This document shows, piece by piece, positions 15,165 through 45,585 of a stretch of DNA of 64,000 nt (positions are counted from its first letter, which is position 1; each line of letters begins with the position of its first letter). The position numbers were made by a program, and so were the translations under genes. The stretch comes from Marsupella aquatica (lineage: Eukaryota > Plantae > Marchantiophyta). The stretch is taken from positions 7,024,232 through 7,088,231 of the forward strand of contig OZ316896.1 of the NCBI GenBank assembly GCA_973895155.1, written 5' to 3'. The notes below the pieces were generated by a model. The model saw only the letters and a list, made by a program, of their open reading frames with translations. It had not been told where the DNA came from and ran no database searches.

Positions 15165-15685
15165 GTAGTTTCTTGTGTTGGAGGACAGATTCCTTGTTGC
15201 TTAATAGAAGCTTTGCCCAAGTGGAGTGGAAGCTAAGACCAAGAAGCATATGCTCCCAATGTTGATATTAGTAGGAGAAGAGAGGGTTATGACCCGGCTT
15301 GCAATTCACATAGGTGAGCATAACCATCCTAGTAGAAAGACCCTTCTCAAGGAGTGCATAGAAGATGATTGAGGATTTGATTAAGAAAATCATGAACCCA
15401 ATCCTCTGGCAAAACCAGCAAGGATCTTGAATTCTGCTATAGGGTTGATAGTGAAAGCTCTTTGCAAACATGTTCACGATATGGTTGATATCAAAGAAAC
15501 TGAAATTTGGAAGTCTCTGATGGTACTTTCCACTCCCCAAAAATTTGCATCTCTTTTTGAAGCATTAGGATAGACCAAAAGGGTGGGGGGTGAGTTAGAT
15601 TTTCTTTTGCAAATGCAAAAGAGGATTAACCTTTCATTTCTCCAAAGGTATTTGCTACCAGGTCAGGGTTGTCAAGACAACAGAC
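15165..15685 (+). pseudogene. Second copy of the GCM-MULE transposase, 5' part (split by retroelement insertion)
   Basis: Translates MTRLAIHIGEHNH (~15289) and GELDFLLQMQKRINLSFLQRYLLPGQGCQDNR, homologous to MSRLAIHMGFHDH and GELDSLREMQARNNFPYVQRYLFPGQGSKTDR in 1695-3581. The left boundary is approximate. Confidence 0.8.
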
Positions 15686-16045
15686 TGTCATGCCAAGGGA
15701 CAGTGCCTCTTGTGCACATCGGCATGTCCCTCGCATGCCAGCTAGGTATGTAGTTAGGGCTAGTGTACTACTTGAGTTAGTGTCATGTTCTTGTAGCGAG
15801 TTTGGGCTATTCTTGAAGCAAAGGTGTTTGTTAGTGTGATGCCTGGACCCGGTCCTACTTAGGGCATGTTTTTCTTTGCCATTTTTCAGTTATTCTTGAA
15901 TCGTTGTTGACAGAGCTCAGACAGTGCTCGTCGGTTCCGTACACGAGATTCACACAATGATTCGTTAGATGCTCCCGGGCGATCTTGGCATCCCGCCGGT
16001 TTTCGATTCGATTTCAGTACGCTTGTTTCTCTCACGCCTTTTATT
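15686..16045 (+). repeat. Terminal repeat A1 (~360 bp)
   Basis: Matches 41435-41645 + 45265-45413 with about 10 mismatches by eye. Not followed by B. Confidence 0.9.
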
Positions 16046-17563: not shown

Positions 17564-19375
17564 ATGTCAGCAGAGGAGCCGAGTCGTAGCAGCTCATCAC
17601 CACCAACACCCCGGTACCACTTACGGAGTGATCCATGACCGTTGGTGCCAATTTTGACGACGCCAGCAGACAGCAGCAGCACCCACACCATGCAATCCTT
17701 CTGCTACATTTGGCAATCGCTTTACCACTACCCCGAAGCCTGCTATTGCTTCTCTACCCTTTACTCCTTCTGCATCAGTAATTGTTCCAGCTTCATCGAC
17801 ATACAGCATGGATGCCAGTCACTCATCTAGCCGCATTGAGCGCTTCAGTGGGCGGCCCGACACTGTTTCTTTGCGTGAGTTCAAATCCACTTTCTATACT
17901 GTCATTTACGAATTGGAGTTGAAGTATGGCAGCAATTTCACAAATGTGTTTGCATTTAAGCAGCTAGCCAGGTATTGCACCATGAGGCTTTGGATGTGTA
18001 TGAACAGCATTCTCAATGGCTGCTTGCTGTCACACAGTTGCCTAACCCTACCTATGCCAGTGCAATTGCGGCAGCCTCACAATTGGCCTTACAGAATGCC
18101 ATTGCAGCCCATGCTGCTGCTCCTACCACTTCCCCTCCTACTCCAGTTCCTACCACTGCGACAGTTACTCCCACTGTCTTGGCACAGGCTACATCAGACA
18201 TTTCTCCCACCATTGATTCCCCTGCCTTTGCTGATCCAGTGGCTGAGTTTTTCCAGGTTCTTGAATTGGAATTCCCAATCAAGAGTGCTGACAAAATCAT
18301 GCAGTTGGCCACCTTTGTGAGGCAGCGCGATGAAACATTGAAGATGATATATCGCCGGCTTCTCAAGCTGAAGGAGGACACCCAGAGCATCACTGACCTG
18401 GAAGCTGCTCATCGCTATCTTCGCGCATTGGAGGGCACACCAGCTCTCCATTCGCAAGTGTTGCAACAAGTATTCTCAGAGTTTGGAGACAGCTACACCC
18501 TACTCAATGTCTATGACACTACTGAGAAACTTGAGTTGGCCCATGCACATTATGAGGCCAGTATTGCGCATCCACCACGATCCAGGTACCAAGCTGCTGC
18601 CCCTACACTGGCCACCCCTTTCCGTGTGCCACAGTATGGTTCCAAGACCAAGCCAGCCCATGCTGCTTTCATGCTGCCATCTTGCAACTATTGTGGTAAC
18701 CCCAATCACAAGGCTAATGAATGTGATATTATTGCTGAGGACCTGTCTTGTGATTTTTGCGGGAAAGTGGGTCACTTGGAGGCAGTTTGTTTTGCCAAAT
18801 TCCCAGAGAGGAAGTAGCAATGACAGTAGGCCTCTCATCCTACTCCTATTTCCACTCCCCCACCAGCTAGGAGGGCTCCTACTGCATCAGTTGCTGCTCC
18901 TTCCAGTGGCAAAGCACCCGGTGCCAACAAATTGCCCAAGCAACAACAGAAGCAACCAGCTCAGAAGGAGGCTCACAACGCACAGGCAACTCAACTCCAG
19001 TCTTTGACTCATGAGGTTGAGTCCTTACGTGCCCAACTTGCCAACATCAAAGGCAAGTCCACTGCTTCTGCTGGTCCTTCTCAATCGGCTGGTCACGTGC
19101 AACCCATCCCTGGCCCAGGCACCACTGATAGCTCAGCATCTCTACCCTGCTCTTTCTATGGCTTGCCATTTGATGCTCATATGGGTGAGTGTGTGTTTTC
19201 CTCTGCTACACAGCCTGGCCTTACAGCAGAATTTTCAGATTCATTTTGCCCTTCCTATTTTGCTTACCAGCAGGCCAGTGCTGCCTCCCGTATTGCTCCC
19301 ACACGCCGCATTGTATAGGCTGATGGTCTTGCTGCCGGTCCTATGACTAGAGCGAGGGGAGCTCGGGCTGTCATG
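17564..19375 (+). pseudogene. gag of the gypsy-like element
   Basis: IERFSGRPD gag-like start, two zinc knuckles (CNYCGNPNHKANEC, CDFCGKVGHLEAVC). Stops at 17636, 18815 and 19316, plus frameshifts. Confidence 0.8.
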
Positions 19376-19788
19376 ATGGAAGGATATTGACAGGAAAAAG
19401 AGGGTTTGTCAACTATATGATAGCTCTAGTATAGAGAATGAATATCATGTATTCATTGCTTGCAAGTTTTATGAGGGGGTTAGGATGGCATCTCAAATCT
19501 TGGTGAAAGATTTGTATGCATTGTTTGGTCTGCCCCCTCAGCAACTTGGAAGATATATCTTTGCGGTGGATAGGGAAAGGAGAATAGGTTTGGAAAATCT
19601 TTCAGGGCTCTCTAGGTCCATAGGGCTCTCTAGGTCCATAGTTTCTTTGAGGACATAGTTGTCCTCTTTTGAGCAATCTCTTTTGGTTGCTCTTTTCTTT
19701 GATTGCATTATACTTTACTTTTTGTGGCAGCTCCTTTGACTTTCATGGTCCCGAAGCTTATAATACATTACCATTACCATTACCATTA
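19376..19788 (+). mobile_element. 5'-truncated LINE (RTEX/L2-like C-terminus) with (CATTAC)n tail
   Basis: Encodes KRVCQLY..ENEYHVFIACKFYEGVR (LINE ORF2 CCHC end). Removing 19376-19788 rejoins gag and protease in frame (RAVM|PQSF). No TSD seen. Confidence 0.75.
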
Positions 19789-21018
19789 CCCCAATCTTTT
19801 CAGCCACTCACACTTGCTGAAGAGCGCACCTTGTTGGCAAGGGGGGAGGGAGCTGCAGCTACATCCATTCCACCACCAGGTGCTGCTGACATTTCACAGG
19901 GAGTTGTTTCTCCTGAGTTACTTGAGCATTTCACCTCCCGTATGGCACAAAGGATTCTTACAACTCCACTTTTCAGTTGCCATGATTTACAACTGGATGC
20001 TAGAGCTGTCATGAGAGCGCTAGCAGGCTCATTGCATTCTTCATCAGCCCTTGTGCCACCAGTTTTGGAGGTCCAATCTCATGTACATACTGGACCTTCT
20101 TCTTCTCCATTACATGCTTCCACTGGTTTGGCTATCCCAGTACCAATTTCCAGTGGTAGCGATGATAGTATTGCTGCAGATTGTATGACCAGAGCTACAC
20201 TGGATTCTGGTCATGCTGCTCCATCTTTCCTGACTATGCTGTTGAGTGGAAAGACCGTGGATACTAACTCCCTTCACAAGGTACCTCATCATTTGCCAAA
20301 AGTGGTGCCTAGCGACAGGACTTCAATTTCCACCACCATTGCCATTGTTGACAATAGGAATTCAACAATCAAGTTGGAGGATCACACTCCTCAGGTGGTC
20401 ATGCTAGACACAGGTGCTCAACCAGTGATATTGGGCATTCAGTTTGCCAAGAAGATGGGACTGCTGACTGATCATTTACAGCAATCCAAGTGGCACATTC
20501 GGACTACTAGTGGCACTGTGGAGGATGTGTTGGGTGAGAGTTCTACTTTACTCACTCTCACTTTTAATGGAGGTACAGATCAGGAACTGCATTTCCCAGT
20601 CAAATGTTTGGTTACCAATGCCACTACGTATGATGTGCTCATTGGCCAGGAGGCTTTGTTCCCACCAGGTTTTACCATTGACAACTGGCATGAGCATGCA
20701 TACTACAGAGCTAATTGGCATACGGATGGCTCACACTTGGGCTACATTCCACTTGATTTGCATGGTGCTCATACACCTATGGCTCACCACTGTGTGTTGA
20801 AAGCAGTGCACACAGCTACCTATGTCAACCACCCATTGCAGGATTGGATTGAGGAGGATGATGATGAGGTGGCTGCTGCACATGCTGTTGCACGTATAGC
20901 AGCACTTTCCATCAATGTAGATCATCAACCAAAGGTGGTACAATGGCTCCAAGCAGCCCTTGGACCTTTGGTGGCTGCATTGCGCAAATTTGAGGACCTT
21001 GGGCAGCACAATGGATAA
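19789..21018 (+). pseudogene. Aspartic protease region of pol
   Basis: VMLDTGAQPVILG catalytic motif and YDVLIG C-terminal motif. Confidence 0.85.
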
Positions 21019-22272
21019 CCAATAGCCCCAATCTTGAGCGCACCAGTTACATGGACTCCTCCTTCGGATGACCTTACATTGCTTGAGCTTTTTGGTGGCA
21101 TTTCTACAGGCCTGGAAACTCTCCTACAACTGGCATGGTGGTGAAGCAGTACATCTACGTGGACATTGATCCAGGTGCAAGGCAAGTGGCTGAATCCCGT
21201 CTGCTGGAATTTTCAAAGCAATTTCCCCAGCAGTTTCCACACAGTGCATGGAAGTTTGCATTTTCTTTCTTCCCTCCAGATATCCAGCTTGTCCAGCACC
21301 GGCACTTAACCCTTCTTGGCTCCCTTGATTTGATCATAGTTGGTTGGGAATGCCAAGGGTTTTCAACTGCTGGTCACGGTGCTGGACTGCATGATTCTCG
21401 TTCTGGCCTTTTCACAGCATTGGTTCAGATTCTCACCTGGGCTCAATCCCTTTATCCTGCTGTTGGTTATATCATTGAGAATACTCCATCTCAGTTTGAC
21501 CAGCGTCCACAAGTCAAAGAGGATTTCAGTGTGGTCCAGCACTACTTGGGACCACCCCTTCTCATTGATGCAGTGCACTGTGGTTCTTATGCACATCGTT
21601 TTCATAACTTTTGGACTAACCTTGCACCACCTTCCTTGCTGGAGTTAGCTCTTCACCACACATCCAGGGACACTAACCTCACAGTGGACCAGATTTTGGA
21701 TCCTAACAGTTCTTGCCAACCAGTTACACGGCAAGAGCCAGCACCTTGGTATCCAACCAATACCATTGGACAGCCCCGTGCTGCTTGGCCTATATTTGTG
21801 TCCTTTCCAGGTGCACATGCTTTTCAGGGTGATGGTCTTGGCCTGGTTTATCGACATTCTACCGGTACATGGGATGAACCTAGTCCTGAGGAGAGAGAAC
21901 GGGCTATGGGCTTCCAACCCGGTACTATAGGTCACACCAAGATCACCAGGCTGGCCAGGAATGCTTTACTTGGCAGGGTAATGGATCTTAATGCTCTCAC
22001 TTGGCTTCTGGTCACTTGCATCCTTTTTCAGATGTACATTCATCCAGCATCTGGAGTTCCAGCTCTACCACTCCATGGTGCTGCTACATGGCATCCAAAC
22101 CAGGTGCACTTACCTCTATTCAACACTCACTGCTTCAGTCCAAGTGTTGGGGGGGAGGAGGTCCCTTGTAACGTGATTGACAATATTTCTGAGTTTCATG
22201 GTGTGGACCAACTCCGATCAACAGGTACAACAGGCCTTGGAGAGGCCTCATCACCTTATCAGCAGCATGCTA
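21019..22272 (+). pseudogene. C5-cytosine DNA methyltransferase domain (DNMT3-like) within pol
   Basis: Motif I LLELFGGISTGLE (~21077). After a frameshift ~21130: YVDID, GWECQGFS (motif IV, Cys retained), IIENT (VI), AHRFHNFWTNL (VIII), ERERAMGF (IX), RNALLGRVMD (X). Confidence 0.85.
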
Positions 22273-23177
22273 CACTAGTAGAAATTGGGGTGTTTTATGA
22301 CTAAGTTTTACGACTGCCCATGACTCCTTGTGACTAAAGTTTGGGGGGTATCAAGCCAGTCGTAATTTTGACATTCAGTCTTATTTAAAGTGACTGAAAT
22401 TGAGTGGTCAACTATGTGACTAGGGTTTAAGACACATTTTGTGACTAATAACGACCAAATCCGTACTTGGGCATTTTGGGATTTGGAGAAGGTGTAGTCT
22501 TACAAATGACTACTTTTGTAGTCATTTGTATGACTCAAAATGAGGTATGAATTAGTCACAAACAGTCAATGAGGAAGAGTTTCCTTTCGCATATATGACT
22601 GGTGCTATGGTTCAATATCGGAACACAGGCGACTGATTATGACTAGTTGGTCTTAAAAGTTTAGAGTGTATGGGCACATTAGTGACAGATCATGACTACA
22701 GATGACTAATCATTCTTAAAAATCTTAAGATTGGGCTAGACTGGTTGGTCTTATTGGGGACCACGATGTAATATATCACGGTCATATCTTAATGACCCAA
22801 AATGACTCATTAGTCTAGTTCACGACTGCATTCTTTGACCTTTTTGGTCAAAATTTTGACTCGACCTAAGGCAATTGGAGCCTGCACATAGCACTAGAAC
22901 CATGACTAATAGTCAACTCAAGCATACAAGCATACATTCAAGCACTCAAGCATACAAGTACACAAGTTTTACATGAAAACATGAGAGACAACATAGTTCT
23001 ATTTGAATCTTAGAACTCATATTAACTATTGAACACACATACATAATTTCATACAAACAAAGTTGTCACAACATGATCAGTGGATGATCCAGTGAATCTC
23101 AATTCAACTCTGCATTATGAGATATCTAGGTAACATTTGGCACCAATCATGCAGTTGTTTCTAAGTTTAGGCTAAAA

Positions 23178-26100
23178 CTACAAACCACACATTTCAGGTG
23201 TCCTTATGTAATCTGTTGGCCACAACACCAAAGAGTTCAGAGCATCTGCAATAATTGTCTGTGGCAGGTCATCATTCAAATTAGGAACTGGTAAAGGGGT
23301 CTTTGGGTTCACAAGCTTTGTCAACAACACTACAGAATACCCTGCTGGTATTTCTTTGCAATGGAATGTAATCTGCTCAGGGCGCAATTTTCCATACCCT
23401 ACACACAACTCATTTTGTTGTGGTGAGAACAATACATACTCAGGATGTGTCTGAGTTTTCAATTCTGCATCAACTTTACGCTTCTTTGCCGCTGCCACTC
23501 TACCACTTGCCCTGGCCCGACTCTTCACCTTCCGAATAGGTCTCCCAGCAGCTGAAAGCTCTACTTCTACTCCACCGTCTGTGGTCACACCCTGTATGTC
23601 ACCTGCCTGTGATGGAATTTGGGTCTCCACCTGGCCCTCCGTTTTGCATCCATTCTCACCGGCTTTGGCAACTTCTATTAACTCTTCATATGAATCCAAA
23701 CTGGGGGTATTCAGTACATTGGTAACCTCTGCAATAAGAAAATAGCAAGTCAACAGCCTATCAGCATTTTTGCCTTATCTCCAATCATGGAAACATATAA
23801 CAAAACACATTTTTTGCCTCATCTCCAATCATGGAAACATATGAGAAACCTTACCTTCCATTGCTGGGGCCATGGTACCCTCCACATCCCTTTCTGTGGG
23901 CTCCACCTCCATTTGCTGTTCAATGTTACCCTCTGGATTCATCAAATTGGAGTAATGTGACAGGTCTCTAGAACCTCCATTCCATATTGCATTCATTATA
24001 CATTTGTATTGGTCTTCTTGCACACGAATAAGCTTCTGAACATCTTCCTTTAAAGCAGTCAACTCACTTGCCATTTCACTCAATTTCACGGTCACATCAT
24101 TCTCATGAGACTCCATACATTTCAGACGATCTGATAAATCGCTAAGAGAACATGATCCACCTCCCTGCAAACACATATGTCCAACAGAGTCAATCCATTA
24201 CACCTGGAAAATAATATATGGTCCCATTGTTCATGCAAACTAGGGAATGTGGACCTCAAAGAACACTATCTGGTATGAGTACTCACTTGGTTCGAAGGAT
24301 CACTCTGGCCAGATTTCTGCTTCTGTTTTCTTGCTTCAGCTCTCACCTCTTCTTTTGTAGGGGACTGTCCATTTTGTGCCTTCTGCATACATCATATTTT
24401 CACACATTATTTGCTCGGACACAAAAAAACTCCAATACATTGTAGAAGCTAGGTCTGCCAATCCAACGATTATTCTTACCAGCTGCTCTACTATCGGAGC
24501 ATTCCCTTTCCTTCCCGTCAAGTTAAGGTTCTGAACGTTGCCACGTGCATATGCCATCTGGGAACTCTTACTCTTGCCGGATTCACTCAAGAAGTGATGG
24601 ACTAGCTTGCTCCATTGAAGAGGATCTGTCAATGGGGGAGCAGACATTCTTTGGTCCTCTCCACCTTCTTGAAACAACACGTGCAATCTCCACCTCTCAT
24701 TTTTCAGAATTGTCTTTGCATGAGCCTGAAGACACTCCATGGCTACTCCATCCGGATGGCCCACATATTTCCATTTTGCGGCTACATTGTCAACAACTTG
24801 TTGCCAATCTGCTGGATGCTGCTGCACAAAATTCACCACACTCAAATCCAGCCATCGCAATATTTCACCTTTCAAGTCAGCCAACCAACGATTCTTCCCT
24901 GCAGATGCACTGTTCACCCAACGGTTGCTCCCAATGTCCACTACTCCTTTCTTGGTTCTGTTAGGTCCTGCATTGCTTTCTGTGGTACTGCTTGGTGTGA
25001 CAGGTTTAGGATTCGCTGGAACTTTTGCACTACCCTTTAGTGGACTTCTAATGCCCCTGCATCATCCCACATCCATGTGACATCATACAATAGTAACATC
25101 AATACCTTTGTATACGTCAAATAGTGGATACCAATTGCAATCTAACTTGCAACCTGACCATCTTCACAGAATGCCCATCTCCCAGCCAAGTATTGTTTAT
25201 TGTTTCATAAGTGTAACTTACCAGATGCTTTGCCGACACTCTGTGGATAAGAGGCAGGCTCAACTACCTGTACATCTTCCCCACCAGCCAACCAATCAGG
25301 CTCTGGCCATTGCTCAGAACCATAGGCTACAATTGTCCCTTGTCCTGCCTCTACTTCAGGTTCATAGTAAACCTCCTTGTCAGTTACTCCCCAATCCAGG
25401 ATGGACAGAATCTGTAGTCACATAATTAAGCACTTTAATTAGGTCTCTAACATCACACTAGCATACCCTTTATATATTTCCAAAGTAATTTACATAAATG
25501 CCAGAATTGAAGGGCAATCCCTACTCACATCTCCAATCGTCTCCTGTGGCTCCATACTGCTCAGTATGTTGTGTTGGTCTACCTTGGCCCCGTGTAATGT
25601 GTGGTGGTGGTGGACCCGTAACATACACAACAGTGTGGCCAGCAGGTGGTGGTGGTCCATACCCATCCACTTGTGGGGCTGCTCTCCCCTGAGAGGGTGC
25701 ACTGTGTGTTGGTGGTGCTCCATACACCACAGTGTACCCCTCGCTGCGTGGGGTTGCTCTAACCTGACCTTCACCTGTGCTGTGGGTATGTGTTGTTGCT
25801 CTACTTGCAAAGGAGGGTGGGATGTGCCCACCATGTGGTGCAGCTCCATACACAATAGTGTGACCACCTACACCAACAGTTGTTGTTCCATACCCACTGC
25901 TCTGTTGGGTTTTACCTGGAGGTGGAGGTGATATGTGCCCAGCACGCCCCACTAGTCCAGACCCACGTGCAATGTAATGCACTATGCTTCGCCCTCCAGA
26001 TGTTGTTGTACTGTGCCCACAGCCCATACCCCGAGCAGCAAGTCCACCTCTCTTAGCCTGCAAGAACATATGTGCAAGGACAATAAACTTAAAAGAAGTA

Positions 26101-26771
26101 TCAGTGATTTCACTAACTCTGGACATTCTTTTGTCCAATTTTTGATCATAAAATTTCCAACAACAATTATTCTTTTCCCTATAACTTGAGTTCTAGAGTA
26201 CATTGTATGTTATGCATAGAATTATTAGGAGTAGCTTGTTAAGCTTCATATATCTTGATCAAAAAATTTCAAATATGATATTGATAAGTCTCATATTTAT
26301 CTACAATTTAGTTGATTTAAATTTCCAAAAAGTTGTTATGAAATTTCCAAATCGTTAATAATATTCCAGAATTAGTGAAACTATTGATAAGTATCTTCCT
26401 TTGACTTGCCACACTCACATGAGCCAAACATATCACTAATGTGATACACTACTTCAACACTTCATTACCACAATTTTGTTGGGCTCCACGACAGTATGCT
26501 TGCCCTGCCCATATTCTTCATCATCTGCATCGGGCTCCTCCTCTGGATAGTACTCTACATCATCAAATTCCTTATGGTTTTCATCGGATCCAACATCTTG
26601 CCCATCATCTGCAGAATCTGCCATCGATGGAATGTCCTTCACTACTAGTCTCTCACTGCGTCGCCGAGGTCCACTTGCACTGTCACTGATGCTTTGCCTA
26701 GCCCTTTTCTGCACTACACTTCTCCTCTCTGGGAGCCTGCATGCCATCCAAAAGAAACATCCATTGAACAA
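23178..26771 (-). pseudogene. CACTA TnpA/Ptta-like accessory gene (multi-exon)
   Basis: ORF 24336-24941 LKNERWRLH...QWSKLVHHFLSESGKSKSSQMAYARG resembles plant Ptta/En/Spm transposase. Terminal exon 23178-23753 (VGYG..HCKEIPAGYSVV..PLPVP..VLWP). Exon structure is not fully resolved. Confidence 0.6.
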
Positions 26772-26991
26772 CTCTAGTAAACATAGCTACATTCATTCCC
26801 ATTAATGAGCAAAGTCTGGATAGGTTCTGTGGATGATAATTGTTCCCTTACAAAGCGGAAAATCCTTGTCTGAGCTCAGCTCTCAAAGCTGCCAGCCTCT
26901 CATCAACATATGCTGCATGTATCATGGCTTGCTTTTCAGACTCACTCATCTCATCATCATCTTCTTCCATGATCCTATTCAATGACAAACA

Positions 26992-29900
26992 TTATTGCAT
27001 ACGCATGGTGTCAGGCTCAGCCTCTACAAATGGCTCCTCACCCTCCCAAGCATCCACCCGTGTTAGAGGAACATACTCCGTGCTTGTCTGAACAGTACCA
27101 ACGTCTCCAGTACGTGGTTGTTCAAATGCACTATGTCTATCTAAATGAAACTCTAGCTTTGACCCTTCTACCCTACAATTTCTGGGCAGCTTATGACACA
27201 CTACCCTCCAACTTGGGTTCTCTTCCACATCCAAGAAGAAGGCCTGCTCCACCTGACTGGGATACACAAAAGGCTGCTCCCATTCGGGCAACTTGGACTT
27301 GAAATTGGCAAGCAGAAAGCCATCCCGATCTCTTTTCATACTGGCCCTGTTACCACGCCACACTTGTCTTACCCATTCACCCTTCATCAAAATTACAGGA
27401 GTGGATGTGGCTCCATAGTCAAGAAGCCAGATATCACTTAGTTCTCCTACATACCCCATCTGCAACACTCCTCTACTTTCATCAGTGCTCTCATGCTGAA
27501 ATACACAAATGAGCCCACAATCATATGTTACCCTGGAAGAAGTTGTTTCATCTCTCACTCTATAGTGATTGCCATATGCTGCCATCCGTTTGTAAGACTT
27601 TACCAGCAACCATGGAGGATTGGACAGGAGATAGACATCTGCATCCATATTAGGATGGCTTGCATGATGCTCTCGAACTGTGCATCTCAGCCATTCTGAC
27701 ATGCATGGGAATGTGGCAGACGTGCTTGATTGAATAGCCTTCTGTGCCTCATACTCCCTACACATATAAGTGCATGGATTTAGCAATCAGAGTACACATT
27801 CTATACATGTCTGCAATTTAGAAACCAAGGGCAGCAAAGAAAATTGAAAACAAGTTACATACAGGGAGACCAAAGTAGGTACTCACTCTAGCCAGGGTTG
27901 CATTGCATCAGTGTTTTCCAGAACGTACTGATGAGCCAAGTCTCTAATTTTGATGGTCAGCTTCACTGTGGTTGCAGCACCTTGTAGGACTTCCCCAGAC
28001 ACCCCTTCTTCTTCATCAGAATTCCATACTCGCCTTGTCACATGCTCGTAATCTGCTAGGTACTCTGTGATGTAGCCCAGAGTTTCATCTTTTATATAAC
28101 CCGGAGCCATACTTGCCTCTGGCCTATAGTAAGATCGCACATGACCCTTCATCAACTTCATGTACCGCTCTAGGGGGTACAACCAGCATGCTGTCACCGG
28201 CCCATACTGGTCTATTTCTTCCACAACATGGATGAGCAGATGAGTCATTACATCAAAGAATGCAGGCGGGAAATATATTTCAAGATCGCACAACAATAGT
28301 GCCACATCTTTCTTCAACTGGGGAAACTGTGCAGCATCCCACACCTTCACACAAACTCTGCGGAACACATCACTCAGACGCAATATAACTTTACGCACAG
28401 GCTCTTGCATGAGGCCCCTCAAGCACAATGGCAGGACTTGTTGCATCATGACATGGTAGTCATGGGTTTTCATACTACCAAATTGGAATTTGTTATCCTG
28501 CACATGCCTCTTGAATGCACTAGCATAATCTGTAGGAGCTCGGAGTGAACTCAACCTTGATAAAAAGGTCTGCCACTCTGTGTCTGTGCAACAATATGGT
28601 GCTTGGTACTTCAAAAACACGTTTGCCCTACTCTGGTGTGTTGTAAGCCAAAGGTGGGGTCGAATTCCCCTGTCCTGTAGATCCATACGTACAGAGCCCG
28701 TGTCCTTTTCTCCACTCAAAAATCGGAGTAGACTCTCGCATATGTTCTTCTCTATGTGCATAACATCAATATTATGTTTGTTTGGATCAAACTCCTGCAA
28801 CTCCAAAACATCAAGCAATGAGCAAATCTCAATCTTCATAATACATACATACTACTTCATACAATCTAACAACTAAATTGACTGAATCACATATATGGGT
28901 TGTTGGGGAGAGGAGCTTACTCGCCAATACTCCAGCTGCAAGTCCAAAATGGACTGTCATTTCACACCATACAACCTTGCAGGATCCCGTACTCCATCCT
29001 CTGCTCCTCCATCTGCATCATACTGTGCCTTGGCAGCCCCCCAAGAACTTATTTGCTCCTTCACTCGAGGTGGGGGACTGCGAAGCTCCGTGCGCTTGTT
29101 AAAATGTGCTATAAGATTGGGTCTACGTCTGTAAGGGTGATCAGAGGGCAGAAATTGACGGTGACCAAGGTATTTGATACACTTCAAGGACTTTTAATAG
29201 TCACTTGTCACATGGGGGCCACATCTTGTGCAAGCTAAATATCCTTTCCCAACCTGGCCTGCAATCATGCTATGGGCAGGGTAATCTGCAATAGTCAACA
29301 TTATAATAGCTCTAAACAAGAATGGATTGGCTTCACCAATCCTCTGCAGCATATCATATGTGAGCACTCCAGTGTACCATAGCTTTCTTAGTTCCTCTAC
29401 TAGAGGAGCAAGATACACATCTATATTGGCTGCAACAACACTGTCTGGCCCTGGAATCAACAATGCCAACATTACAAAGAACTGCTTTGTAGTCAACCAT
29501 GGGGGAAGGTTGTAATTCAAAAGGGTTACAGGCCAACAAGAGTACGCATTGTTCTTCTCGCCAAATGGGAACACCCCATCCAATGATAACCCAAGCCTAA
29601 CATTCCTTGTCTCCCTAGAAAACTCAGGATACGCATCATCAATCAACTTCCATTGCTTTGAATCTCCAGCATGGCGTTGTAGCCCATCTCGACTTTTGTT
29701 CTTAGCTGTCCATGTCATCAACTCTGATATGGCACGGCTCCTGAACATTTGCTGCAGTCTGGGAATTATAGGAAAGTGACGGAGTACTTTTGTAAGTTGC
29801 TTGGACTTCCCATTGTTCCGGTACCTGTGCTTCCCACATGTAGGGCATGTCAACTTCTTCTGATGTTCGTTTCTGAAAAGACCATGCCCATCAGGACAGA

Positions 29901-30732
29901 CATGTATTGACTCATAGTTCAGCCCAAGTTTTGATATCAATCTCTTTGCCTCGTACATGTTTTTTGGCACTAGATTACCTCCTGGTAGCACTGTTTTTTG
30001 CAAGAAGGCCAGAACCTCGGACACAAAGATGTTTGGCACATTGTGGTTCCCACAAATATTCAGAAACATTAGCACAAATGCTAATTTGGAACAATTGCTT
30101 CCTGGGAACAGCGGATTGAAGGCCTCCTGAACTTCGGTTGGGGAGCCAAACAGGGTGTCCTCTCCAGCTGTAGCCTGTTGCCCAATCTCAAACTCATCTG
30201 AAGACTCGTGGTCATCACCCGGTGCGGTCTCAAACTCTTCTACATCTTCCATGTCCCGCATTGCATCCATGTCCTGGAAAATATCCTGCACCATTTGCTG
30301 AACATTGATCCCTTTTTCTGCAGGCTGCTGAAGGACTTCGGACCCACCCAGTTGAGTCATCACATTTGCCAACCAACCAGTGAAGAACTGGTCTCGCCTT
30401 GCACTATTTGCATTCTCAAAGTCAGCCCTCCATTCCTCATCTGAAGAATCAGCCTCATTCGGATTGTTTGTAACACGCCAACGAGGGTGTCTCCCATGAA
30501 TTGCCAAGTGCCCATGAATCTGCCTCAAGACTCTGGTGTGGGAGCCATTGCATTGAGTGCAAGGACATCTCATTCGTGAACTTGGACCTGACCGTGCCAC
30601 TTTGGCCTGTTCCCGATTCCAGAGCTTCTGGTCATGTTGGGAAACCCTCATTGGATGATGTAGAGGCAACCTGGCAGATGTTGGATGGGTCCAAGGGGGA
30701 GGGTGACCTACGGACACTCTTCTAGACTCCAT
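26992..30732 (-). pseudogene. CACTA transposase (Tnp2/TnpD with DUF4218/DUF4216-like C-terminus)
   Basis: Motifs CPCTQC, IHVCPDG..CPTCGKHRY, FPIIPRL, RNVRLGLSLDG, YNLPPW, IDVYLAPLVEEL, ADYPA, HRQFLPSDHPYRR, IDVMHIEKN, FPPAFFDVMTHL, YPLERYM. Stop at 29194; introns ~28840-28956 and ~27760-27885. Confidence 0.9.
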
Positions 30733-31145
30733 CTTAGAGTTTAGAACACAGGCACTCAGATTTAATTGTCATTTCATTATGAAAGTGGAAAATACATTTC
30801 TTGTTTAGTTGTGTTCCGATGTTCACACTATCTACCAAAACATATGATATGATATAGTGTAGTAAATCATGCATAGACTTTCTACAACCACCAAAAAAAC
30901 AAGAAAGGTTCCTGAATCGTGTACCTATTCTCAGGTCACACTGTAACAAAATTCCTAACTGTCTCAGGGTGTCACCTCCTTTGCTGTCCTCACTTATACT
31001 GCCTCAGTCTGCAATGGCCAACCAAGCACGTACATCCATGACCATATCAGAGTCCAATCACCTATAGTCATAGACAAACGTGCCTGGTGTGAGAGCAGTA
31101 TGAGATCTCCTCATGTTATTACCAGAGTTCATCTGGATACCCGCC

Positions 31146-31703
31146 CTATTCTCGATGGTAGTCACACCTGAGGTACACTGGCATGTACATCAGGTCATCA
31201 AGGAGTATGCCCTGGGCATACCAAGGTGGGGTTCCATCTGTGCCTACAAGAAGTGGTTCTAATGCCCTCCACTGGGGGGAGCGAGCTACCAAGTCCCTCC
31301 ATTGTGTGCTAATTAGTTTATATTTGCAAATGTCTTGTGCGGTTGACCACAGAAGAATTTTGGGCCACACATCCGACAACATTATATCATCTGGCAAACT
31401 AGGCAACAAGGAAGTCCCCACAACATTCTGCTCTTCAATTTCATTTGCTGAAAAATAAGATTCATCGTCTCTTGCATCCTCAGGCGGTGTTGAAATATGT
31501 TTCAACACCAACCCATGCAGGAGAGTCCAAACAGTGGCCAGCCATGTGGCAACCCGGAGGAGGAGCCTACATAGCGCCTGTTGATGTAAGAAAGGCAACA
31601 TACCCACCAAAGTCTGCCGCCAAGATTTCAGCCCACCCAGTAAGTTTATAGTGACACCCCCTGGCAGCAGTAAAATAAGTCCAATTGCGACCAACCATAA
31701 CAA
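31146..31703 (-). CDS. F-box-like protein (CACTA cargo)
   Basis: LPSLPDDIMLSDVWPKILL...KYKLISTQWRDLV resembles the F-box consensus. Start uncertain. Confidence 0.45.
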   Translation of the reverse strand: MLWLVAIGLILLLPGGVTINLLGGLKSWRQTLVGMLPFLHQQALCRLLLRVATWLATVWTLLHGLVLKHISTPPEDARDDESYFSANEIEEQNVVGTSLLPSLPDDIMLSDVWPKILLWSTAQDICKYKLISTQWRDLVARSPQWRALEPLLVGTDGTPPWYAQGILLDDLMYMPVYLRCDYHRE

Positions 31704-31787
31704 GCTACGTTAGTTCAAATATCACATTTATTTCAAAGATGTGATTTGTACACAAAGCTTCTCAAAACTGATGCTACTACGTACTCC

Positions 31788-32660
31788 TCACTCTGATTCA
31801 GAATCGCTAATAACCTCTTCCTCACTTGTTGTCACATAGTTTTCACTGTGAGGATCCTGACCCTTCCGTGGCCAGGCCTCAAAAAGATCATAGTCCATTG
31901 GGTTTTGACGCTTCCCAGCTGCTACTGATTCCACAAGCCAAGCATATGAAACCACAAACACATTATGGGACATGACATAAAAGCGAATGTCACCCTTCCC
32001 AAACTTGCGGCAGGCTTTGGGATATGACTTAGTAATGACATGAGTGGTGTCCTCTGTTATATTCTCCTCCACTGTCCCACCTAGGTCAAGCATTGTGGAC
32101 TTGTACACTTTGCACTTAACCTCTCCAATTCCCGCCTCCACAAAAACCATGCTCAGCCCTTTCAGAATGGGGGTTGGTTGCTTCATCTCCTTAGCCAACA
32201 TACTCTTCAGCCTTCTTGAGCTTTGTCCTTTGTTGAGTACAGGTCCATATTGGACATCAGCAAGCCGTGCCTTTGCTTCCCAGACTTCTTGTTCAGCCCA
32301 AGCTAATGCAGTAGCTTCTTCATCCTCCCACAGTTCATATTGCTCAGTATCCCGTACAATCTAATGTGCTATGGAATCTGTGATCCAAGAGGCCTCAACT
32401 ACTTTTAGGCCTTGCTCAGTAATTGCAGAATTCATGTAGGACCATGACCATTTCTTTATCACTGATAGCCATGTCCCTACAACAACATGTGTAGTCTATG
32501 GAGTGATGTCCTGCACTACAATGCCATGGAGCTCAGAGAATTGTTTCTGTACAGTTGGCCAATGCACTTTGGTCAACCCATGCTGGCCATGGACCAAAAT
32601 GGCTCTGACCCCTGTAAACATTGCTGGGTGGTCACACTTTCTACGTTTCCCAGGCTCCAT
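31788..32660 (-). pseudogene. Tandem BRCT-domain protein (CACTA cargo)
   Basis: BRCT1 MFTGVRAILV..GIVVQDITP*TTHVVV..VVEASWITDSI (two TAG stops). BRCT2 LKGLSMVFV..LGGTVEENITEDTTHVIT..VVSYAWLVESV. Confidence 0.75.
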
Positions 32661-33279
32661 GTACACACACCCTACGTGATCAGAGTGAATATTGGAAGAG
32701 TGGGTTCACCTGCCAATAGAAGGACACCAAAATTCCTGCTTTTTAAGTTGATCCGGTCCACTGTTGCTCAAGTCCAATTTTGATAGGTACAGGGGATATG
32801 TGAACAATAAGTACTAGGCACCTGCACCGATGCAAGACATTGTTTGAGTATATACTAGGAAATCCATATCAAAGGTAAAATGAAGTGCAACCAACTTGTC
32901 ATGGCCGCACATACATATTTTGTTGTAAAGGAGGATACATTCAATGACAAAGTTATAGGGCAATTTGATTAATTGCATGCCTGATAATTTATATGCTTAC
33001 AACTTTGAAGTCCTGTTTTAATTTAGCAGTCTGATGAGAGTGTTTGTGAAAATGACCACTCAGCCTAAATACTTCCAAGAAGGCTTGTAAGGATAATTTT
33101 TTATAGGCATGTACCCAGCCACTGACGCTAGAGCACAGGATAAGTGCTGCCTATACAAACTTGCCTACCCAACTCCTTTTCAAAATTGGAATCTCTGCAA
33201 TCCCCAAAAAATAGTACATCCACATCAGGTGCCCTGTGCATGTACAATGTTCAGCTTCACAGCCAAGATATGTGATCTC

Positions 33280-33960
33280 TCACAGGAGTGCGCAAGGTAG
33301 GATCAATGGCATGGCGATGACAATAAATATCCATCGATCAACACCATGTGCAGAGTGATCATAGATTTCTCTATCACAAGCATAACCCTCTGCTTGATGA
33401 TCTTTCAAGCAATGATAGAGCCACATAGTGGGACACCTAGCACAATGGACTATGTCAGCCCAATACTCATCATCATGCTCACCACATGCCTTGCACCTAT
33501 GAAGTGGGCAAGTTGTGGCATGAGCAGGCAAACACTCAAAACAGAAAAACCTCACACAAAAACGGTCTGGACATTTCCTAACATCCGGTGCAGCATCAAC
33601 AAAGCCCTCATAGGACCCCAACTTCCCACACTGTGCACACTTAGCCTGCTTCTCCAAACAATCAATGCACATCCAGTCTCCCTGGTGTGTTGATGGGAGG
33701 CCCACCCCTGGACAATTGTTTTCTGCAGCAAGGTGAGACTCCGGGTTGAGGTGGAAATGCCTCATGCAAGGGCCCTCACAGATGACCAAGCTCCCACCAT
33801 CGTCACAAATGGCACAACAATGAGCTGCCTTCTGGAAAATCTGACTTGCAGAGAAGTTAGTAACGTGTGGCCAGGTACACCTGTGTTGCTCACCTCTATC
33901 ACACGCTTTTTTGCTGGAATTTTGGGGTGTGCCATGCCTACGCATGAGACAGACAGTACA
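33280..33960 (-). CDS. EDM2/NSD-type composite PHD-finger protein exon (CACTA cargo)
   Basis: CAICDDGGSLVICEGPCMRHFH..CIDC..CAQCGKLGS..C...C..FFCFEC..CPLHRCKAC..CARCPTMW..CL closely follows the EDM2 PHD cassette pattern. Confidence 0.7.
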   Translation of the reverse strand, partial: CTVCLMRRHGTPQNSSKKACDRGEQHRCTWPHVTNFSASQIFQKAAHCCAICDDGGSLVICEGPCMRHFHLNPESHLAAENNCPGVGLPSTHQGDWMCIDCLEKQAKCAQCGKLGSYEGFVDAAPDVRKCPDRFCVRFFCFECLPAHATTCPLHRCKACGEHDDEYWADIVHCARCPTMWLYHCLKDHQAEGYACDREIYDHSAHGVDRWIFIVIAMPLILPCALL

Positions 33961-36900
33961 ATTAAGTAGACAATACAGGCAATACATTTTGGCAGACTTT
34001 ACAAACAATATGTTTTAGCAGACTTCACAGAAAGTAAAATTTAGCATTTAAGGTACAACGGCAACTTATACTGCAATGAATTGCAATGGCCACACAAGGA
34101 TGCAGGGCAGACATACTTTTGGTTTGTTGAGCCCACACACAAACTGATCTCCTAGTACAATTGCTCCACCAGCACCTCAATTTCGTGGCTATGATTCACC
34201 AAAAAAGATCTGCAACAACATTTCATGCATTTGAATCACATACAATAATCATCACATGAAAAACAGGCATTTTTCCAACAAGATTGGGATCAAGTAGTGT
34301 GATGAGGGTTATACTTTATACATCCTATATAGGCTATGATAGTGAGACAAATAAGTTTGAATACGTGACTGTATGGGATGTTTGCAGGTTATGACATGGC
34401 CCATTAATTCTGTCATATAATGTTACAATGTTGGCCAAGTTAAAGCAGTCATTCAAGCAGTCTTTCATTGGAGAATTTAAAGAGAGCTTGCTTAATTCTT
34501 ACATTAGGATATTCCACTTAGTGCAGCCAAATTAGGATAAGTTATATACTATGGATCCTAAACCCTGCACCCAAATTGCTCAAACTTCAAAATTTTAAAT
34601 AAATATCCGCGGTGCTTAAGTCAGAACATTAAGTTATAGGTCATTGCACTCTGGTCTGTGCATACGGTGTGACAAGTGCTCCTCTACAACGTGTGATCCA
34701 AACATGTGTAGACACCAAACGCACCGGTGGTGGGGTTTGGGAGGCCAGGACAAGTGACATCGCCAGGCACACTGCAGGATGGCGAGTGGTTCCAGATGAT
34801 ACATTGTGCTCTATGCAAAAATCGACATCCAAGAGAACGGTCATCCAACTCTGGGCCAGAAGCCCGACAGGCAGGATAGTCATATTGGCAACTGTGTACA
34901 CACCCTTGGGCCCTAATTTGTGGCGGGTCATGTACGAGAGACAGAAATACCAAGGATGTTGGGAAGGGTAGAGAAGCAGGTACATGCCGACTGTAGTTAT
35001 TCCTGGCAACAACAAGGTACTCAAAGTACCATGCAAACTGGGCAGGAAGGATCCCAAGTCTCACATACTCAAGGCGCAACCTCTCTGCCTTGCGTGCAAG
35101 CCGCACATGTTCAGCATTGCGGGTGCTCACCATAATTGTTGCTTTTGTTCAGATGTCTTGTGTTCACGTCCTTTGACGTCCTTCGATCAGCAAGGTGAGC
35201 AGGAGCTGTACTTGCCTCACCAACAACAACCAACCTGAACTTATCAGTTCCCACTCACTATGTCATTCCCTTGATTCCAACTAGAGGTCATAGTATAAAC
35301 TTAGCATGAAACACTCCTAATCAACAATGTTGCAAACTACAATATCCAGAAAGACTGAAAGTCTCTGCCTGCAGTGAGCAACAGAGAGGTAGTTCACTGC
35401 TTGCAAGAGTGAACTGAGCAGGAGTGTAGGCAGACTGGCATTCAGTTGGCACAACTATATTTTGCATCAACACAAAAGCTCTTATAAACATGATATGCAT
35501 GAAACTCGTCAATAAAATAGAAGGAAACTAAAGAGTGGATGCAAAACAAAGCATATTACAGCACAGGTCGGCACAGGAAGTGGCCCGCAGCACTCAGTCA
35601 AACTTCATAACCAAAGTACAGACTGTGTACACAATAAGGAGCTTCCTAAAAAAGAGGCCACCAAAAGGGGTGGCAGAAAGGTCACTTGACAAAATGAAGA
35701 TGGGAATGAAAAAACTGCCTCCAAGCTCAATACATGTGACCAAGTATATATTCAAAGAGGATCCCCAACAGAGTAGAAGACAGTATGATCCCAATTACTA
35801 TGTTCTATCCATAACTACACGATCTGAAAAATGTTATGAGCAGACATGAAGAAGCCAGCAAAACAAAGCAAACAGAGCAAAACAGAGCATGGATCGAGAA
35901 AATGAACAACATCTAGTTCTTACGCAAGAAACTCAGTGACAGCAAACAAATTCACCAGCCCCCAGGGAGTGAAAAGCAAATGAGTACCAAGCCAACCAAC
36001 TAAGACTGACTATGAAATGCAAGTGACATCATTTCAACCAAAAAATACAATAAAGCACTTAGGCAACATTAATATAGAAGTGTAGTGGAATTATATCATG
36101 CGACAAATCGTACTTGGTTCTACCTGAGGTGTACAGGCATACTGCCCTCAGGTAGAATGTGTATGCAATTACATACACATGAGGATCCCAAACAAAGCAT
36201 ACAACAATATGATCTGAATTCCCAATTACTCTGTTCTGTCTATACCTATGTTCATCAAAAAATGTTATGAGCAGACATTGAGAAGCTAGCAAAACAGAGG
36301 AGCCAATCGAAGCCAAAATATTACATTGGAGGTTGAATACAGCAGTCACCGCCAAGAATGTATGCATGAAACAAACATGAAGGTATCGAATATGTATATG
36401 CATTCTAGACTTTCATGCTAGACAGTGGCCAAAGTTAAAATGAACTAGTTTTGACTTTATGACTCTCATAATGAAAATATTTTATTTCAGAATTATATTC
36501 TATTTCAGAATTGGTTCAACTCTGTGGATTGTGAACTGTCCCACTTGGAATTCCACTATTTGGGCTATCTAAGAATGCAGTTCAAAGGACATACAGTGCA
36601 AGACAGTTAGAGATCATGTCTTCATTCCGACGTCTAATTGGACATTTTATGTCACAAACTGCGCAAGCAATGAAGTCCATGGAATTGTCTCAAAAATGCA
36701 GCTTCTATTGTTGGTAAAAGCAACTATGAGTTTCCTATTGAGTGCCCCCGATGCACAATACTACCAGAGGCCCACTTTAGACTGCGATGGCTGTCATTAC
36801 TTATTGGGAACTCGGATGCATATATATTGAAATGCTTCGCAGAGTGTTCCAACCACAAAAAACCTAACATCAATCTCAACATTCAGTCCCGTCTCAGAAT

Positions 36901-38563
36901 TGATTTAGAGGAGGCTTAGCATTCAGTACAGTGTCAACAATCAGTCTTGTCTTCACATTCAACATCCGATTGCAAGGGGCTTCGATGAAAGCACAAGACA
37001 GAGCTATAGAAGAAGAGACAGAGGAAGGCAGGTGTGTGTTCGGGGAAAATGTGAAGCTCCAAAGACCACCCTAAACTGAAATTGCAGCGCGCAGTTGGCC
37101 GGTCGTAGGTTGATAAAAGCAAAGCATAGAGCCACTGGGACGTCTGCAATCTTTCCGTCGCAGTTGAGGTCCTATGCCTGATGACATGATCAAGAATGAG
37201 TAGCTACAATGTCCAGTCTCTCTTGACAGTGTGACATAGCAGCAATACATACATTGGATCAAAGCACGAGTCGGAGAAAAACAATGAGAGATAAAAATGG
37301 ACTTTTGCTCACCCATGTGCTGGATGGAAGAATGCAGCTACGAGGGCCGGTCTCCAACTACAGCTCCTTGATGGCAAACCGCAGGCTCTTCCTAGTTCTT
37401 CAACCAAAAACTCACCCGAAACACACTCTTGCAATGTCCTGAGTTAGTCGCAACAACTCCAATGTAGGTTGCAGCTGCCAATCCGTTCCCTCCGCCCTCC
37501 TTGCCAATGCCAACTCCCAATAGCAATGAGGCTTGTTCAGCTGACCTCCTTCGTAGGAGCTCCCAACTCCCAAAGCAAAACCGTCACTACTCACAGCTAA
37601 AAAACGGTCCCTGGACCTTGTCGCTGCCAATGTGCATCGTGCACTCAGTTCTCCTGCCCACCAAGAACTTCAACTATAACTTCAACTCCAATGCCCAAGA
37701 AGATTGATGAGCTCCTTAGTCAAAGACGCAGCTGGAAGGGTATGCATGCACTTACAGTTCACTAAGCTCCAATGCCCGGGACGATTGAGGAGCTGCTCTT
37801 GAGACTGGTTGCAGCTTGAATGGTAAGACCATAGGAATCCCGCGACGTTGTTCGAGCTCACAATACGCTTGGAAGAGAAGGATAGAGCTGCAGTAGACTT
37901 CACCCTAAGTCTTTACGCCTCCCACACAGGTCCCGCATTAGTAAAGCTTGTGCAGTGCCTTCCGCAGCAGTAGCGAAACTCCCGATTGACTCCCTCCTTC
38001 CGCAGCAGTAGTGATCACCTCCCTTGGCGCAGCTGCGAATGTGCTCTACTTGCAGCCCAAGGACTCAAATGTGTCCAGCACGCAGTGATGGAAGCCACAG
38101 CAATGGGAGCACGCATGGACGGGACCCACACCACCACAATGAGCTTGTAGTTTTACGAGGGAAAGTGAAGGAAATGCGCACCCTAGCCAGCCGCAAGGAT
38201 GCACTTCCGCCTTGGTGTCTGCAAACTCTCCCGTCTCCCGATCGAAGGAAGCTCAGACATGTGTGACTAAACGGGGACGTGCGACTAAACGGGGATGTGC
38301 GACTAAACGGGACGCAGGAACGGAAAAGTTTGACCTGATGGTGGCGATCAACTCCATCCAATGGTGCGTGTCCCCCAATTAACCCCCTCCCCCTTGAGAT
38401 CGATATAACCCCCACACCCATGTGATATAACCCCCCTAAACCCCCTTTAGGTGTCTTGGTAAAACCCCCCCTAAACCCCCTTTAGGTGTCTTGCTACAAC
38501 CCCCCCTAAACTTTGGCAGGAAGGGTTACATGCATGTGGATGAGTTAGCTAGGCCTAAACTGT

Positions 38564-41216: not shown

Positions 41217-41256
41217 CTTTTCTTCAGCCCTCCTTTTGGCTGTGGTTTGGGGGGGA

Positions 41257-41432
41257 TACAGAGGTTTACACCTCCACTACGTACATACCACCTCAGTTGC
41301 TTTTTCTTGGCACTTGTGAATGTGATTGGACTTTTTCTAAGGATGTTGGTTGCTAGCAGCTTGCACATATGCATTGCCGGTGACTTGTATGTTTTTGATA
41401 CACTATGGCTACGATACTATAATGTCACGATA
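41257..41432 (+). repeat. Repeat B1, preceded by a polypurine tract GGGGGGGA (41249-41256)
   Basis: Matches 45414-45585 and ends CACGATA, followed by GC and then A2. Confidence 0.9.
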
Positions 41433-41434
41433 GC

Positions 41435-45413: not shown

Positions 45414-45585
45414 TATAGAGGTTTACACCTCCACTATGTACATACCACCTCAGTTGCTTTTTCTTGGCACTTGTGAATGTGATACTTTTTCTAAGGATGT
45501 TGGTTGCTAGCAGCTTGCACATATGCATTGCCGGTGACTTGCATGTTTTCGATACACTATGGCTACAATACTATATGTCACGACA
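45414..45585 (+). repeat. Terminal repeat B2
   Basis: Copy of B1 ending CACGACA, directly followed by TSD AGAC. Confidence 0.9.

Follow-up and report, generated by a model that had tools for sequence, protein, structure and literature searches.

The 64,000-nucleotide stretch analyzed here (the window; contig OZ316896.1 of the leafy liverwort Marsupella aquatica, positions 7,024,232 to 7,088,231 of the forward strand) contains a Ty3/gypsy-type retroelement whose polyprotein includes a cytosine DNA methyltransferase domain of the DNMT3 type. On balance, it is somewhat probable that this is a dead copy from a liverwort family of elements that encode such a domain between the protease and the reverse transcriptase (RT), and whose intact members are predicted to methylate element DNA. 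The identity of the element and its membership of this family can be held with high confidence, and DNA methylation as the function of the domain in intact relatives, which is argued by analogy, appears evenly balanced.

The initial annotation of this DNA, made from the letters and ORF translations only, had described motifs I, IV, VI, VIII, IX and X of C5 cytosine methyltransferases after the protease and in its frame, apart from one stop and one frameshift, and all of them were recovered at the positions given in Table 1. The profile search that it had proposed gave a match to PF00145 (C-5 cytosine DNA methylase) above the cut-off (26.1 versus 22 bits, E 7.2e-6) in the motif IV region of the open reading frame (ORF) at 21087-22304 (405 amino acids, aa), and relatives of this ORF score 28-51 bits against the same profile. 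A chance resemblance was considered and ruled out, as 120 database proteins of similar length match the ORF, the best with E 4.6e-154 and 66% identity. The S-adenosylmethionine (SAM) loop of motif I (F-x-G-x-G) is present as LELFGGISTG at 21082-21111. Read across the TAA, the protease frame gives ...LGQHNG*PIAPILSAPVTWTPPSDDLTLLELFGGISTGLETLLQLAWW, and the intact relatives P0175 and P0122 (P numbers denote database proteins) have no stop at this position and read ...SHGEPIRPLL.... Past the frameshift, the frame of the ORF reads ...TGMVVKQYIYVDIDPGARQVAESR, and the same stretch forms a single frame, ...GLEALLQSGMVVQRYFYVDID..., in intact relatives; because they read the region in one frame, the window is one base short at this point. 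Motif VIII of the window contains HRFHN, in which the second Arg is replaced by His, and the commonest form in the family is HRLRN. Among 54 distinct copies, the first Arg is kept in 39 and the second in 34, and Arg-x-Arg is a family feature that was lost in the window copy. In the partially available text of PMC4802922, substitution of either arginine in motif VIII of Dnmt3a is described as almost abolishing activity. The placement of the domain between protease and RT, also proposed by the initial annotation, holds for the order of the polyprotein but not for adjacency in the window copy, where a foreign block begins at 22273 and the RT resumes at 38564.

Among characterized C5 methyltransferases, the domain is closest to DNMT3 both in sequence and in modeled fold. 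A family profile built from 15 sequences matched DNMT3A best among PDB entries (E 7.3e-22, 80.9 bits), followed by DNMT3C (2.1e-21) and DNMT3B (6.7e-20), and gave weaker matches to DRM (2.3e-11), M.HhaI (5e-10) and DNMT2 (5e-8). The alignment with DNMT3 spans motifs IV to VIII and the DNMT3-like ER..GF...LLGR end, and the order of motifs I to X is normal rather than of the DRM type. For P0175, the DNMT domain was modeled with AlphaFold from a 24-row alignment; the model had a predicted local distance difference score (pLDDT) of 91.3 and a predicted template-modeling (pTM) score of 0.90, and its top Foldseek matches were all DNMT3A, DNMT3B or DNMT3C (E 6e-18, target-normalized TM scores of 0.80-0.83, about 20% identity).

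The domain is an integral part of the polyprotein throughout the family. The window ORF matched 172 database proteins (120 of near-equal length and 52 longer ones), in which the Pfam partners of the DNMT were protease, RT, RNase H, integrase and PHD. Named sources of these matches include Calypogeia fissa (65% identity), Sphagnum balticum, S. magellanicum and Klebsormidium nitens (31%, E 2e-30), as well as the green algae Haematococcus lacustris, Chromochloris zofingiensis and Monoraphidium neglectum. A relative was also encoded by 510 of the 598 pattern matches on metagenome contigs. Each of the 81 sequences compared (80 metagenome loci and the window) covered 90% or more of an alignment of 301 codons, and in 68 there was no gap over all 301. 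A profile search of 1.84 billion representative sequences returned 614 clusters (50% identity) at E <= 1e-30, and among the best 150 of these 80 were at least 1000 aa long. Judged from their reading frames, intact lineages of the family exist: P0175 (1315 aa, in the 71% identity class, with 8 members in its 90% cluster) has an uninterrupted gag-protease-DNMT-RT frame carrying ECQ.

The initial annotation had also raised the concern that the domain might be absent from other copies of the family and represent a captured host fragment, and its presence in all related copies examined disposes of this concern. A single capture of a host DNMT3 gene fragment at the window locus, outside the element family, is therefore extremely improbable: the DNMT lies at the same place in 81/81 aligned copies, linked to the protease upstream and the RT downstream; it has no introns and, in intact relatives, continues the protease frame. 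Nothing was found in favor of such a capture. Locus-specific capture was rejected on the ground that metagenome loci and database proteins share the domain at the same place.

A side observation concerns the labeling of such proteins. P0046, which its record assigns as a DNA cytosine methyltransferase to a Candidatus Obscuribacterales bin, is a cluster-mate at 90% identity of P0221, a gag-protease-DNMT polyprotein of 1359 aa, and the most likely source of its bacterial label is a eukaryotic contig in the genome bin. Retroelement DNMT domains are easily miscounted as host DNMT genes, and in this case one was deposited as a bacterial methyltransferase.

A DNMT tree of 86 rows (quick IQ-TREE run, retroelement domains only, no outgroup) fell into two halves, each with a Shimodaira-Hasegawa-like approximate likelihood ratio (SH-aLRT) support of 99. 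In the first half, which includes the green-algal proteins, the order of domains is RT, RNase H, DNMT, integrase and PHD (e.g., P0138, P0203, P0141, and P0149), and in the second it is protease, DNMT, RT, RNase H and integrase (e.g., P0175, P0127, and P0221), so that the two domain orders of the family fall on opposite sides of the deepest split. The second half holds a Klebsormidium-like clade (FPCQ), a PCQ clade of 26 rows and a clade of 19 rows with the window (SH-aLRT 100). The window DNMT groups by sequence with the Klebsormidium Gypsy-DNMT3 sequences: it shares motifs with them, and in this outgroup-free tree both fall to one side of the deepest split (SH-aLRT 99).

An estimate of selection, suggested by the initial annotation, pointed to purifying selection, with a ratio of nonsynonymous to synonymous divergence (dN/dS) of 0.08-0.11 in the pairs for which dS was computable. 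Between the window and the metagenome loci, the proportion of nonsynonymous differences (pN) in the DNMT was 0.214 and the median proportion of synonymous differences (pS) was 0.731 (n=80), synonymous sites being saturated; the corresponding values for the RT were 0.123 and 0.768 (n=28). Among the metagenome copies the median dN/dS was 0.35 over 1411 pairs, a value that mixes selection with decay after insertion. These comparisons show that the DNMT domain has been under purifying selection roughly half as tight as that on the RT. Stops are numerous in the metagenome copies (L001-L080) and are mostly C-to-T or G-to-A changes (CAA/CAG to TAA/TAG or TGG to TAG), whereas indels are almost absent over the 301 codons. 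In the window, the observed/expected ratio of CpG is 0.23 in the DNMT part, 0.27-0.42 in the element and 0.68 in the exon of the host Nup133 gene, and 9 of the 10 differences between X1 and X2, the two copies of one terminal repeat segment of the element, are transitions. The types of stops, the CpG depletion and the transitions fit the decay of methylated DNA by deamination of methylated cytosines.

To our knowledge, the Pro of the Pro-Cys dipeptide in motif IV is close to invariant in C5 methyltransferases. The window departs from this standard dipeptide, the Cys being present and the Pro replaced by Glu. The initial annotation had noted an unusual GWECQ context with the catalytic Cys kept; both motif and Cys are indeed present, but the context is no peculiarity of this locus and is conserved across the clade. 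Glu precedes the Cys in 12/12 aligned close proteins and in 53 of the 54 distinct copies, in which the Cys and the Glu of motif VI are likewise kept in 53 and the Asn of motif VI in all 54. Among the 172 database proteins, motif IV could be located in 108 (64 not locatable), with Glu in 72, Pro in 35 and Lys in one, and among the best 150 of the 614 clusters ECQ was found in 73, PCQ in 44 and another form in four, the motif not being located in 29. Because Glu is so nearly fixed in the copies, constant in the close proteins and the most common state in the wider family, GWECQ is a family trait rather than a lesion of the window copy. Independent (convergent) origins of Glu were considered, as the best tree requires 3 changes, but a single clade of the 37 Glu rows was not rejected (approximately unbiased (AU) test on the 71 of 86 rows with a known state, p 0.45), and convergence is therefore not claimed. 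A literature search on mutagenesis of the Pro in motif IV returned nothing on the Pro itself, the one relevant paper being that on motif VIII (PMC4802922). It may tentatively be proposed that a large group of retrotransposon DNMT3 domains, maintained by selection and now found in land plants, has exchanged the catalytic-loop Pro for Glu and is either active or a decoy that manipulates the host. If the ECQ domains are active, C5 methyl transfer would tolerate or even exploit an acidic residue beside the nucleophile, and if they are inactive, bryophyte retrotransposons would carry a DNMT3 decoy that manipulates the methylation machinery of the host.

With regard to function, the polyprotein, or a DNMT released from it by the protease, would act within the reverse-transcription or pre-integration complex or close to it. 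During reverse transcription and integration or shortly afterward, the DNMT of intact relatives would deposit 5-methylcytosine de novo on the newly made or newly inserted DNA of the element, presumably at CG sites by analogy with DNMT3. The new copy could thereby resemble resident methylated DNA, or its own expression could be damped, and the C-terminal PHD finger may read chromatin for targeting. Methylation of their own DNA was proposed for DIRS elements in the available text of de Mendoza et al. (PMC5890265).

Several points weigh against an active DNA methyltransferase. The window copy, to judge from its sequence, is a dead copy that cannot methylate anything, because it combines the stop and the frameshift with the Arg-to-His change in motif VIII, a polyprotein split by insertions and further stops elsewhere; the suggestion of the initial annotation that the element could methylate its own cDNA or target site fails for the window element on these grounds. 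Most other copies have decayed as well, as only 4 of the 54 distinct sequences, the window among them, are stop-free over the 301 codons. The Pro-to-Glu exchange next to the Cys possibly means changed or lost chemistry, and the target and timing of methylation and its benefit to the element are what we infer rather than observe. In the accessible part of PMC5890265, catalytic activity is demonstrated for no Gypsy-DNMT3; when the only relative tested, that of K. nitens, was assayed in yeast, de novo methylation was absent, an outcome that the authors did not regard as decisive because human DNMT3B failed too.

The main rival explanation is a conserved pseudo-enzyme that keeps the DNMT3 fold, and perhaps the binding of SAM or DNA, without methyl transfer, and that serves the element as a module binding DNA or chromatin, or as a DNMT3L-like partner recruiting or blocking the methylation machinery of the host. 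This explanation is rather unlikely. The near-fixation of Glu described above and its prevalence in the wider family speak for it, as does the failure of the K. nitens relative in yeast reported in the available text (PMC5890265), and purifying selection indicates a function without indicating which one. However, the Cys, the Glu-Asn of motif VI, the FGG..G of motif I and the Arg-x-Arg of the family are kept, all of which pseudo-enzymes usually lose, and motif IV of the K. nitens domain is the canonical PCQ, for which reason its failure in yeast cannot be tied to the Glu. A distant second is that the domain methylates RNA, either the genomic RNA of the element or a primer tRNA, in the manner of DNMT2. 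DNMT2 methylates RNA despite its DNA-methyltransferase fold. The domain belongs to a polyprotein that handles RNA, the weaker PDB matches of the family profile include DNMT2, and RNA methylation was raised for a LINE-borne DNMT in the accessible text of de Mendoza et al. (PMC5890265); nevertheless, profile and fold are far nearer to DNMT3A/B/C than to DNMT2 (7e-22 versus 5e-8, with top Foldseek matches all DNMT3), which leaves RNA methylation quite improbable. DNA methylation by intact relatives is retained as the preferred reading.

The order of protease, RT, RNase H and integrase in pol is of the Ty3/gypsy (Metaviridae) type (Table 1), and no tyrosine recombinase was found by Pfam in the window or in seven relatives, in which rve and Integrase_H2C2 were detected. 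In gag, residues 3-292 of P0175 match 18491-19387 (tblastn) and the N-terminus matches P0122; the zinc knuckle (PF00098, zf-CCHC) scored E 0.0012 and 19.3 bits, under the cut-off of 20.8 bits. The PF13975 score of the protease was likewise just short of its cut-off (28.2 bits), and the region aligns with the proteases of P0122, P0175 and P0015. RT and RNase H share 83% identity with residues 506-820 of P0121, a frameshift separates the frame of RNase H from that of the integrase, and pol ends at the stop at 41214-41216; a PHD finger after the integrase is also present in relatives. No recognizable tRNA-complementary primer binding site was seen by eye past X1, and no tandem repeats were found in the long 5' leader of the element.

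Two foreign insertions interrupt the coding region. Within the first, in the linker between gag and protease, 117 bp (19674-19790) recur 16 kb upstream at 3591-3707 with 98% identity; neither the ORF at 19377-19658 in this insertion nor the ORF in the 5' leader had a Pfam match. The second, of 16.3 kb, carries ORFs that match PF02992 (183 bits), PF13960 (90 bits) and PF13952. Its 20-nt CACTA-type end matches only at 22273, no second terminal inverted repeat being found at up to 3 mismatches, and its right border is set solely by the point where the retroelement resumes. The distance from the start of the DNMT to the RT anchor is about 1.5 kb in 28/28 loci with RT coverage and 17.4 kb in the window; based on this spacing and on the tblastn alignment of relatives, about 126-131 codons of the DNMT-RT linker and the start of the RT were lost from the window copy at this insertion. 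The 16.3-kb block also has, on its minus strand at 31788-34014, ORFs with BRCT and PHD matches, which may be captured host fragments.

The ends of the element are not a plain Ty3/gypsy pair of long terminal repeats (LTRs): the 5' end consists of X only and the 3' end of Y, X and Y. By BLAST, 15685-15898 corresponds to 41434-41647 (98.1%) and 15892-16045 to 45260-45413 (96.1%), and 41257-41430 matches 45414-45583 (94.8%). Ends were compared in eight independent copies, namely the window, L003, L013, L015, L022, L050, L042/L062 (one locus) and L075. The order X1 ... Y1 X2 Y2 was found in the window, L003, L013, L015, L022 and L050; in L075 the Y end is kept past a deletion, and in L042/L062 BLAST paired only X1 and X2. 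A copy of Y upstream of X1 was absent in all copies examined. The window and the seven further copies all start with TGTCATG, end in ...GACA, have the G-run before Y1 and are flanked by a 4-bp duplication, which is perfect in six (AGAC in the window, GGTC, CCAA, AACC, TTTT, and CCAC) and has one mismatch in two (ATTA/ACTA and GCTA/GTTA). DIRS-like split repeats in a family with insertion of the integrase type would call for a route of replication still to be worked out. Nested within X2 lies a small LTR element of 3.6 kb (41646-45259). Its LTRs of 160 bp are 99% identical, and it has TG...CA ends, a purine run before its 3' LTR and a 5-bp duplication (ATTCT).

Table 1. Features of the DNMT-carrying retroelement in the window (positions are those of the window)
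Feature	Position	Strand	Remarks
Target-site duplication, 4 bp	15682..15685 and 45586-45589	+	AGAC; precedes TGTCATG and follows ...CACGACA
Retroelement	15686-45585	+	gag, protease, DNMT, RT, RNase H, integrase, PHD
X1, 5' terminal repeat	15686..16045	+	begins TGTCATGCC
gag with CCHC zinc knuckle	17808..19387	+	ORFs; knuckle around 18680-18727; frameshift near 17.97 kb; in-frame stop 18815-18817
Foreign insertion in gag-protease linker	19388..19791	+	about 400 bp; gap in tblastn match to P0175
Aspartyl protease	20371..20658	+	in ORF 19651-21018; PF13975 (E 7.2e-6, 26.9 bits); PF13650
In-frame TAA between protease and DNMT	21016-21018	+	...LGQHNG*PIAPIL...
DNMT3-type C5 cytosine methyltransferase domain	21019..22272	+	PF00145 match; 66-71% identity to relatives
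Motif I	21079-21117	+	LLELFGGISTGLE; in protease frame, after the TAA and before the frameshift
One-base frameshift	21130/21131	+	from protease frame into frame of ORF 21087-22304
Motif IV	21342-21365	+	GWECQGFS; catalytic Cys kept
Motif VI	around 21474-21491	+	IENTPS; ENT at 21477-21485; Glu-Asn kept, Val replaced by Thr
Motif VIII	around 21585-21629	+	SYAHRFHNFWTNLAP; His at 21603-21605 where family has Arg
Motif IX	around 21888-21914	+	EERERAMGF
Motif X	around 21966-21992	+	LLGRVMDLN
Inserted block, 16.3 kb	22273..38563	-	CACTA-type end CACTAGTAG; tnp2 transposase, DUF4218 and DUF4216 ORFs
RT (N-terminal part missing) and RNase H	38564..39955	+	RVT_1, RT_RNaseH, RT_RNaseH_2; in-frame stop 38810-38812
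Integrase (H2C2 zinc finger and rve core)	39810..40799	+	PF17921 51.5 bits, PF00665 53.2 bits; in-frame stop 40797-40799
PHD finger, C-terminus of pol	41082..41198	+	PF00628 40.1 bits, E 3.7e-10; ORF 40800-41216
G-run, polypurine-tract-like	41248..41256	+	TGGGGGGGA; directly 5' of Y1
Y1, internal copy of 3' terminal repeat	41257..41433	+	
X2, second copy of X	41434..45413	+	split by nested small LTR element
Y2, 3' terminal repeat	45414..45585	+	ends ...GTCACGACA

Outside the element, the window contains the host Nup133 gene (51262-56365), whose first long exon is represented by an ORF at 51262-53088 that encodes the N-terminal part of Nup133. Its identity to proteins of other liverworts is 94% for Calypogeia fissa, 69% for Marchantia paleacea and 63% for Riccia sorocarpa, which places the host among the leafy liverworts near C. 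fissa. At 424-7885, long ORFs on both strands (630, 479, 346, 275, 219, and 189 aa) had no Pfam match at E <= 0.001 and may belong to another mobile element.

Plants silence transposons mainly by cytosine methylation, and a transposon family with a de novo methyltransferase of its own would reverse the usual relation. Liverworts and mosses are tractable genetically, and their methylation pathways, in which a host DNMT3 takes part, are known. With the same family now placed, on sequence grounds, in both liverworts and mosses, what a retroelement gains from a DNMT would become testable in land plants. The replacement of the catalytic-loop Pro by a conserved Glu poses a sharp biochemical question, and the split repeats together with integrase-type insertion pose a question about replication.

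Gypsy-DNMT3 elements are a known kind, and their occurrence in land plants is new as far as the literature was searched. The initial annotation had held that such elements are not a standard feature of land-plant gypsy lineages, in keeping with which the literature searches, whose scope did not extend to paywalled papers, figures and supplements, gave retroelement DNMTs for algae only and none for land plants. In the parts of the sources available, retroelement DNMTs are described for K. nitens, a charophyte, and for dinoflagellates (PMC5890265) and are mentioned for 'streptophytes' (PMC12344493; 10.64898/2026.05.21.726589), 'streptophyte Gypsy-DNMT3' being the name given in the preprint to KnitGypsy-Dnmt3 (10.64898/2026.05.21.726589).

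KnitGypsy-Dnmt3 of K. nitens is similar to the window family in its Ty3/gypsy-type Pol with a non-rearranged DNMT3-type domain, its split repeats and purifying selection on the DNMT, as described in the available text, where the legend of Fig. 4 credits it with repeats arranged as in a DIRS retrotransposon and with Gypsy domains (PMC5890265). The K. nitens protein P0109 (31% identity, E 2e-30) aligns with 76% of the ORF in the window and has the family's motifs GSYAHRxRxWWTNLAP, ERERAMGF and LLGxxMD; the K. nitens domain order was taken only from the Klebsormidium-like P0155 and P0161 (gag zinc knuckle and DNMT). The differences are that the window family belongs to a leafy liverwort, and so to a land plant, and has close relatives named from Sphagnum mosses, that identity is only 31-34%, and that motif IV is ECQ here and PCQ there. 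SymbioDIRS-Dnmt3 of Symbiodinium also combines a DNMT3-type domain with a retroelement with split repeats and, within the accessible text, is the sole case in which the DNMT of a retroelement was shown, by expression in yeast, to carry out de novo CG methylation (PMC5890265); however, it is a dinoflagellate DIRS element with a tyrosine recombinase, whereas the window element has a DDE integrase, TG...CA ends and 4-bp duplications. The EpiLTRs of Euglena and Cymbomonas are likewise of the LTR type and carry a cytosine methyltransferase with a chromatin-reader domain, but their DNMT is described in the available part of the preprint as sister to DNMT4 and accompanied by a Dam-type adenine methylase and a chromodomain (10.64898/2026.05.21.726589), whereas the window family has a DNMT3-type domain, no Dam and a PHD finger. 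Chromoviruses, which are Ty3/gypsy elements, resemble the window family in bearing a chromatin reader fused C-terminally to the integrase; their reader is a chromodomain, whereas the window family has a PHD finger, a DNMT and split repeats in place of long terminal ones. Compared with the cellular enzymes, DNMT3A, DNMT3B and DNMT3C (e.g., structures 5yx2, 6u8p, and 8tci) give the best profile and fold matches and share the order of motifs, AHRxR..W.NL and LLGR with the window family, while the retroelement domain is only about 20% identical to them, lacks PWWP and ADD domains, is part of a polyprotein, has EC for PC and is longer in the region between motifs VIII and IX.

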